A stretch of DNA of 64,000 bases from Escherichia coli. Its GTDB lineage: Bacteria; Pseudomonadota; Gammaproteobacteria; Enterobacterales; Enterobacteriaceae. The notes under the pieces were generated by a model. That model was not told where the DNA came from, did not search any database, and saw only the letters and a program-made list of their open reading frames with translations. The stretch lies in NCBI RefSeq assembly GCF_044324875.1, contig NZ_CP172185.1, one strand, 5' to 3'. Each line of letters begins with the position of its first letter. Position 1 is the first letter of the stretch. Positions 15,025 to 15,291 of the stretch are shown piece by piece. The position numbers and the translations under genes are program-made.

Positions 15025-15028
<4 letters not shown>

Positions 15029-15291
15029 AAGAGTTTTTATTTTTATTTCACTCCACGGTCGGCGTCATACAAACCCGCAAGGCGTTGCAGGCAGCGGGCA
15101 TGACTTTTCGCGTCAGCGATATTCCCCGTGATTTACGCGGCGGCTGCGGGTTATGCATTTGGCTGACCTGTCCCCCCGGCGAGGAAATACAATGGGTGAT
15201 CCCTGGGCAGACCGAAGCGATATATTGCCAGCAGGGCAGCGACTGGCAGTGCGTGGTGCATTACGATTCAGAAGCGTCAACCAGGCAATAA
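15025..15291 (+). CDS. Small hypothetical protein (88 aa) translationally coupled to yjiL
   Basis: ATG overlaps yjiL stop in ATGA; Cys-containing (GGCGLC, CPPGEE); function unknown. Confidence 0.45.

Follow-up and report, generated by a model that had tools for sequence, protein, structure and literature searches.

We conclude with high confidence that the small open reading frame (ORF) at positions 15025-15291 (+ strand) of the analysed window, a stretch of 64,000 nucleotides of Escherichia coli DNA, is ytiA, a genuine gene and the third, very probably translationally coupled cistron of a probable FNR-activated yjiM-yjiL-ytiA operon, which encodes a cytoplasmic protein of about 10 kDa with a predicted ferredoxin-like alpha/beta fold, belonging to the DUF3343 / PF11823 family. 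As a gene call ytiA adds nothing, since it is already present in the K-12 reference, in RefSeq, in Pfam and in a ribosome-profiling list. The lead that it offers lies in its partners: a coupled protein from a putative Se/S carrier family suggests that the substrate or the cofactor of YjiM involves mobilised sulfur or selenium.

An 88-codon reading frame overlaps the stop codon of yjiL

The ORF consists of 88 codons followed by TAA. Its ATG (15025-15027) shares two bases with the TGA of yjiL (15026-15028), yielding the ATGA stop/start overlap at 15025-15028 (+) that an earlier note on this DNA had described. Reading of the sequence further revealed a Shine-Dalgarno-like GAGGA (15013-15017, +) within the 3′ end of yjiL, 7 nt 5′ of the ytiA ATG, and purine-rich equivalents of this element (GAGAAA, GGAGG or GGGGAAA) take the corresponding position in other E. 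coli as well as in Klebsiella and Atlantibacter. The predicted product has a mass of about 9.9 kDa, a pI of 5.5 and five cysteines, at residues 41, 44, 49, 68 and 76.

The first gene of the unit is yjiM (13100-14251, +), encoding a double-cubane-cluster (DCCP-type) anaerobic reductase, and the second is yjiL (14261-15028, +), encoding an ATP-dependent activator or electron-transfer ATPase of the BcrAD_BadFG family. The coordinates of yjiL were taken from the annotation of a near-identical strain, and the yjiM start at 13100 likewise follows the RefSeq annotation of such a strain, the ORF listing having an earlier GTG at 13079. YjiM matched PF06050 (HGD-D, E 7.5e-122) and the NCBIfam equivalog NF040772 (531.8 bits against a cut-off of 350), and YjiL matched PF01869 (E 6.2e-76) and TIGR00241 (362 bits against a cut-off of 125.4). 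Of the seven cysteines of YjiM (47, 66, 85, 115, 280, 309 and 342, numbered from the GTG at 13079), the spacing is close to the published motif, though a regular expression for the exact published seven-cysteine spacing found no match in the protein. The class assignment of YjiM follows from its NF040772 score and from a statement in a review by Jeoung and co-workers (PMC7317905), according to which YjiM is a probable class II DCCP sharing the cysteine motif and YjiL is its ATP-dependent partner. Because of this NF040772 score, the name 'dehydratase' is dated for YjiM. In the earlier description of a 'dehydratase/activator' operon, therefore, the linkage of the ORF to yjiM-yjiL stands and the 'dehydratase/activator' label is out of date.

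The earlier note suggested that K-12 might have no annotated gene at this place, which proved to be wrong: NC_000913.3 carries ytiA (b4715, YP_009518833.1, 'uncharacterized protein YtiA', 85 aa) at 4563668-4563925, with a 4-nt yjiL overlap. Moreover, in a strain whose sequence matches the 1-kb query at 100% identity, RefSeq places a CDS, 'putative Se/S carrier protein', at the exact coordinates of the ORF. The ytiA region was matched in 5385 of the 5426 complete E. coli genomes, and an annotated CDS was present at ytiA in all 30 rows that were sampled evenly down the ranking of these 5385 matching genomes. Literature retrieved under the name 'ytiA' dealt mostly with the unrelated B. subtilis L31 paralogue.

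Ribosome profiling, put forward earlier as a check on the ORF, was already available from the literature. Specifically, ribosome footprinting in E. coli O157:H7 (EHEC) uncovered an ORF of 267 nt, X070 (Neuhaus et al. 2016, PMC4765031), with a translatome RPKM of 53, a gene coverage of 0.52 and a ribosome coverage value of 3.58 in aerobic LB, and with a predicted promoter placed 5′ of yjiM. This ORF corresponds to ECs5296 in the Sakai annotation (PMC4765031), and its product, as given in the supplement of that paper, is identical to that of the window ORF at 87 of 88 residues (S82A). The weak point of these data is that the footprint coverage of X070 under aerobic conditions is modest.

ytiA is conserved and under purifying selection

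Several antisense or out-of-frame ORFs of 76-110 aa, all unannotated, occur in the same 6 kb as ytiA, so that the length of the ytiA ORF is by itself no proof of a gene. Such abundance of similarly sized ORFs is what could make this one a chance open frame or a non-functional remnant 3′ of yjiL, a reading with practically no probability left: it is refuted by the published footprints and the reference annotation described above, and by the Pfam match, the purifying selection, the conserved start and junction and the confident structure model that are detailed below.

The domain search that had been proposed for the ORF returned PF11823 (Se_S_carrier, formerly DUF3343) with 49.2 bits against a gathering cut-off of 25 (E 3.6e-13), residues 4-59 of YtiA aligning with profile positions 2-57 of 69. 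Lin et al. (2015, PMC5322559) describe its members as small stand-alone proteins, about 80-100 aa long, in which a single cysteine is highly conserved, and the 88 aa of YtiA fall within that size range. Searching 5.8 billion clustered proteins yielded 133 YtiA homologues with E <= 1e-3, from Escherichia, Citrobacter, Klebsiella, Raoultella, Kosakonia, Phytobacter and Atlantibacter, and PF11823 was found in all but one (a 60-aa partial sequence) among the matches listed. No NCBIfam model matched YtiA, and comparison with the sequences in the PDB yielded only unrelated proteins (best E 0.049).

Conservation at the amino-acid level, on which the earlier note had staked the reality of the ORF, was clearly present and reached 54% identity in other genera. 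An alignment of 20 enterobacterial representatives (A1) contained 21 invariant columns, mostly in residues 1-45, and comparison of the two E. coli ytiA alleles with those of Klebsiella and Atlantibacter (Nei-Gojobori) resulted in a dN/dS of 0.08-0.27 for all pairs, with a dS of at least 1.4 between genera. An AlphaFold2 model of YtiA built on A1 was compact (mean pLDDT 86.8, pTM 0.77) and showed the topology E2-8, H11-23, E28-32, E43-49, H53-57, E63-70, E73-79, that is, a predicted beta-alpha-beta-beta-alpha-beta-beta fold of the ferredoxin-like type.

yjiM, yjiL and ytiA form one conserved unit

Scanning one genome per species with A1 as the seed revealed 53 loci encoding a YtiA relative. A second alignment, A3, which spans the A1 range plus homologues of 20-38% identity, is too diverse to seed a genome scan; A1 was used instead, and the scan consequently reached only Enterobacteriaceae and Hafnia. 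In all 53 loci a YjiL homologue ended at the ytiA start, and YjiM was also encoded 5′ in 52 of them, the exception being a short contig (L014). The yjiL/ytiA overlap measured 4 nt (ATGA or GTGA) in 35 of the 53 loci, 1 nt in 10 and 8 nt in 3; these counts, made by script, cover 48 of the 53 loci, and four Kluyvera junctions outside the counts read ATGA. Ten loci (L021, L023, L025, L030, L035, L037, L041, L042, L059 and L063), from the Klebsiella oxytoca and Citrobacter freundii groups, Yokenella and E. albertii, start ytiA with GTG instead of ATG, and nine of them keep the 4-nt overlap as GTGA, the Yokenella locus (L059) having an overlap of 1 nt.

The order of the three genes was kept in Escherichia, Citrobacter, Klebsiella, Raoultella, Kosakonia, Kluyvera, Atlantibacter, Trabulsiella, Hafnia and others. 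The triad was intact despite wholly different flanking genes in Atlantibacter (where it lies between DUF4231 and gor/rsmJ/prlC-like genes), in Klebsiella and in two low-GC loci, L067 and L069 (38.7% and 32.3% GC). An overlap of the 4-nt ATGA/GTGA type was also present at the distant homologue loci L069 and L011, and on a metagenome contig of 590 nt a YjiL-like C-terminus (…HPDGQFAGAIGAA…) overlaps the start of a distant DUF3343 gene by 4 nt. Together, the constant presence of YjiL and YjiM and the overlap kept across species support the earlier proposal of a third operon member, and we consider ytiA very probably to be translationally coupled to yjiL, as judged from these junction sequences.

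Identity to the window proteins was 82% for YjiM, 65% for YjiL and 38% for YtiA at L069, and 73%, 59% and 39%, respectively, at L067. The conservation of YtiA in this low-GC comparison was concentrated in residues 1-50.

Some loci carried a damaged unit. In Citrobacter amalonaticus AUH_CA_2023_1 (L065) both ytiA and yjiM are disrupted, and in Enterobacter sp. EA-1 (L066) yjiM is degraded and ytiA shortened to 69 aa, which could be joint decay of the unit or an assembly error. E. coli CP131_Sichuan (L009) has lost yjiN, yjiM and most of yjiL to IS1 and IS3 insertions, yet an intact, annotated ytiA still follows a yjiL remnant of 99 nt, so that this strain is a natural 'orphan ytiA' strain.

With regard to regulation, yjiML is listed among the operons directly activated by FNR (PMC3688515). 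The yjiN-yjiM intergenic region contained no match to the FNR box TTGATNNNNATCAA when up to 2 mismatches were allowed, and the window-wide count of such matches was near chance; the FNR link of yjiM-yjiL-ytiA is thus taken entirely from the literature (PMC3688515). A promoter and terminator scan of 12800-15700 gave nothing above shuffle expectation, with no promoter-like site between yjiM and ytiA and no terminator-like site just 3′ of ytiA.

The 3′ third of ytiA differs between E. coli alleles

Compared with K-12, ytiA of the window has a single mismatch in 15025-15208 and 40 mismatches in 15209-15291, the latter stretch (+ strand, codons 62-88) being a divergent 3′ third that is linked to a downstream espX6-like gene. 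The megablast match to K-12-type genomes ends at 15235, and coverage of 14700-15700 reaches 80% or more in only 635 of the 5385 matching E. coli genomes. Both alleles nevertheless keep the frame as well as T63, Y67, C68, W74, C76 and H79. This pattern suggests an old recombination or insertion breakpoint inside the ytiA coding sequence, across which the reading frame would have been preserved.

Two downstream genes accompany the 88-aa allele, the espX6-like gene and one of the yjiK family (SdiA-regulated), in a region extending to about 18800; the coordinates and protein accession of this yjiK-family gene differ from those of its K-12 counterpart. With its 'DWQCV', the long allele is closer to Citrobacter amalonaticus than the K-12 allele is. 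The espX6-like gene (15604-17694, +), located between ytiA and yjiK and not found in K-12, encodes a pentapeptide-repeat protein of 696 aa annotated elsewhere as T3SS effector EspX6. Within it, at 17400-17582, a 24-nt unit is repeated in tandem 7.6 times, and since strain JNEC-KY178 has a version of the gene that is 48 nt longer, the repeat number varies between strains. Farther away, the near-identical strain carries iatD, for an inverse autotransporter, in the interval from yjiJ to kptA (window about 20300-25550), where K-12 is without iatD, and a gene for an Rpn-family recombination-promoting nuclease upstream of mdtM (window 9019-9963). The iatD and Rpn coordinates are approximate, because identity between this strain and the window is only about 98.3% beyond the 1-kb query.

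Cys41 is the only cysteine conserved throughout the family

The Cys41 codon (15145-15147, +) lies in a GGCGLC loop between strands 2 and 3 and is invariant in both A1 and A3. In A3 only F8, P34 and C41 remain invariant, which leaves Cys41 as the sole cysteine invariant across the whole family. Database sequences ending near this conserved cysteine had raised the possibility of Sec-containing YtiA variants; they turned out to be frameshifted metagenome fragments and therefore give no evidence for Sec forms.

Within the Enterobacteriaceae (A1), C41, C44 and C49 are each invariant or at least 90% conserved. Archerase-type ATPase activators need a reduced electron donor, and this requirement, together with the three conserved cysteines and the predicted ferredoxin-like fold, might point to a small redox or metal-binding protein in which C41-x2-C44-x4-C49 would bind an Fe-S cluster or a metal and donate electrons to YjiL in the manner of a ferredoxin or flavodoxin. 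However, C44 and/or C49 are missing from triad-linked distant homologues (SCGLSIRFQW in P0141, ACGLGIRRS in P0145 and ACGLCIQLDG in P0136), both being absent in P0141 and P0145, so that only C41 is invariant. Moreover, C44 and C49 sit within a beta strand of the AlphaFold2 model, and YtiA matched no Fe-S or ferredoxin family of Pfam. Because of the loss of C44 and C49 in the triad-linked homologues, we regard a role as Fe-S protein or electron donor as extremely unlikely. As a candidate member of the ferredoxins or Fe-S proteins YtiA was accordingly rejected, the cysteine motif that would bind a cluster being lost in P0141 and P0145.

The gene neighbourhoods of 11 distant DUF3343 relatives fell into four recurring classes. 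Double-cubane reductase and activase genes adjoined P0136, P0141 and P0145 (loci L011, L067 and L069), and genes for YedE-type Sulf_transp membrane proteins adjoined P0147 (overlapping) and P0159 (loci L068 and L013). Class-V aminotransferases of the cysteine desulfurase / selenocysteine lyase type were encoded next to P0153, P0179 and P0187 (overlap 4-14 nt) and P0159, such genes adjoining DUF3343 at loci L070, L073 and L074; finally, TusA or YedF-like genes accompanied P0153, P0154 and P0187 (loci L012, L070 and L074). The context of P0135, on a 1.4-kb contig, was uninformative.

Since these other DUF3343 genes are linked to YedE, YedF, TusA or desulfurases with no double-cubane gene nearby, and since YtiA evolves far faster than YjiM or YjiL, YtiA might belong to general sulfur/selenium trafficking that is independent of YjiL/YjiM, adjacency then reflecting only anaerobic co-regulation. 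The linkage in 53 of 53 species loci and the start/stop overlap kept across families and changed flanks speak against this, as does the state of the damaged loci, in which the one clearly broken ytiA (L065) stands beside a broken yjiM and the 69-aa ytiA of L066 beside a degraded one. Co-location without functional linkage is hard to square with such complete coupling and is the less likely option; we rate the independent role as very unlikely.

A possible sulfur or selenium carrier for the double-cubane reductase

For the cargo and the destination of Cys41, we tentatively favour a reading that we hold to be possible rather than probable, namely that YtiA uses Cys41 to carry sulfane sulfur or selenium for the YjiL/YjiM reductase, either presenting its substrate or removing its product. 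This proposal follows from the invariant Cys41, the sulfur/selenium-gene neighbourhoods, the work of Lin et al., the selD overlap and the co-occurrence reported by Haft. In particular, DUF3343 has been proposed to be a Se/S chaperone with one highly conserved cysteine, and the STRING partners of the Slackia DUF3343 proteins include an activase and an HGD-D subunit (Lin et al. 2015, PMC5322559). The duf3343 gene is among the top five genes overlapping selD. Furthermore, 955 of 970 NF040772 double-cubane proteins occur in SelD-containing assemblies, and a Se-bridged double-cubane cluster has been raised as a formal possibility (Haft 2022 preprint); DUF3343 / PF11823 is unmentioned in that preprint.

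Mechanistically, ribosomes ending yjiL would re-initiate at the overlapping ATGA, so that synthesis of YtiA would accompany that of its two partners, the activator YjiL and the double-cubane reductase YjiM. In the loop before strand 3, the invariant Cys41 might then hold sulfane sulfur or selenium on its thiol as a persulfide or perselenide. The low-potential [8Fe-9S] site of YjiM, charged with electrons by YjiL at the expense of ATP, might either receive this atom from YtiA or donate it to YtiA. YtiA would thus act as a substrate or product carrier of the reductase and be no enzyme itself. Our literature search found no experiments on YtiA or any other DUF3343 protein, which makes the carrier function a comparative-genomics hypothesis.

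Four points count against such a carrier. Firstly, YtiA diverges far faster than its partners (38% identity at L069, against 82% for YjiM and 65% for YjiL), which is unusual for a tightly docking subunit. Secondly, two very different alleles of its C-terminal third exist within E. coli. Thirdly, the double-cubane enzyme of C. hydrogenoformans works in vitro as a two-protein system, according to the review (PMC7317905). Fourthly, Lin et al. recognised no DUF3343 subfamily that is specific for selenium (PMC5322559).

The genetic linkage would be identical if YtiA were instead a maturation factor, one that supplies sulfide or selenide as the bridging chalcogenide while the double-cubane cluster of YjiM is being assembled and that is dispensable in turnover. 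The near-complete co-occurrence of double-cubane proteins with SelD and the Se-bridged cluster idea (Haft preprint) would fit such a factor, as would the frequent overlap of DUF3343 genes with cysteine desulfurase or Sec-lyase-type genes, the classical donors in cluster assembly. However, the C. hydrogenoformans DCCP is described as two associated genes with in vitro activity, and a third protein goes unmentioned in the accessible part of that review (PMC7317905). In addition, one-to-one translational coupling better fits a stoichiometric partner than a catalytic assembly factor, a weak argument. Overall, we consider a maturation role rather unlikely.

Returning to YtiA as a carrier, a more specific and speculative form, to which we likewise give only a low probability, is that Cys41 carries selenium as a perselenide, and that YjiL/YjiM either reduces this selenium to selenide for SelD or builds a Se-bridged double-cubane cluster, in which case YtiA would be the missing link between double-cubane proteins and selenium. 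If so, the orphan yjiML operon would gain a physiological substrate and the near-universal presence of double-cubane proteins in SelD-containing assemblies would be explained. A double-cubane/selenium link of this YtiA type is made explicit neither in the Haft preprint nor by Lin et al. (PMC5322559). Since E. coli is genetically tractable, its three-gene unit would be a convenient system in which to examine the DUF3343 carrier hypothesis as well as the double-cubane/SelD link.

Comparison with known systems

YtiA of K-12 MG1655 is the product of the same gene at the same position, with the same 4-nt yjiL overlap, and its residues 1-61 are identical to those of the window allele, the DNA showing 1 synonymous difference in the first 184 nt. 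The alleles differ in length (88 aa in the window against 85 aa in K-12) and strongly so in the last 27 residues of the window allele; moreover, ytiA is followed in the window by the espX6-like gene, which K-12 does not have. X070 / ECs5296 of O157:H7 is closer still, sharing the length of 267 nt and 87 of 88 residues; its promoter was assigned to yjiM (PMC4765031). In that study X070 was treated as a taxonomically restricted novel short gene with no proposed function (PMC4765031), whereas here it falls within the widespread PF11823 family.

With the DUF3343 proteins encoded beside YedE, YedF, Sec lyase and SelD (PMC5322559), YtiA shares the family, the size of 80-100 aa and the single conserved cysteine. 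Like ytiA, these relatives are often coupled to a neighbouring gene, in their case a sulfur/selenium gene. The neighbours of YtiA, in contrast, are a double-cubane reductase and an ATPase rather than YedE, YedF or a desulfurase, and its identity to the relatives linked to the latter is only 20-35%.

The TusA / SirA carriers (PF01206) are small alpha/beta proteins with one functional cysteine, through which TusA relays persulfide sulfur, and such a relay is the role proposed here for YtiA; TusA/SirA-type genes also adjoin DUF3343 genes at several loci. In TusA, the cysteine is part of a CPxP motif and sits where helix 1 begins. Membership of YtiA in this family was rejected, as there was no PF01206 match at E <= 0.01 and Cys41 lies between strands 2 and 3 rather than in a helix-1 CPxP. 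At most, therefore, YtiA works like TusA, being no member of the TusA family.

Finally, YjiM and YjiL are the E. coli counterparts of DCCP and DCCP-R of Carboxydothermus hydrogenoformans (Jeoung and Dobbek; review PMC7317905), YjiM being named in the review as a likely class II DCCP. There, the C. hydrogenoformans DCCP system is described as consisting of two components, and ytiA goes unmentioned in the accessible part (PMC7317905), whereas the enterobacterial unit has a conserved third gene, ytiA.
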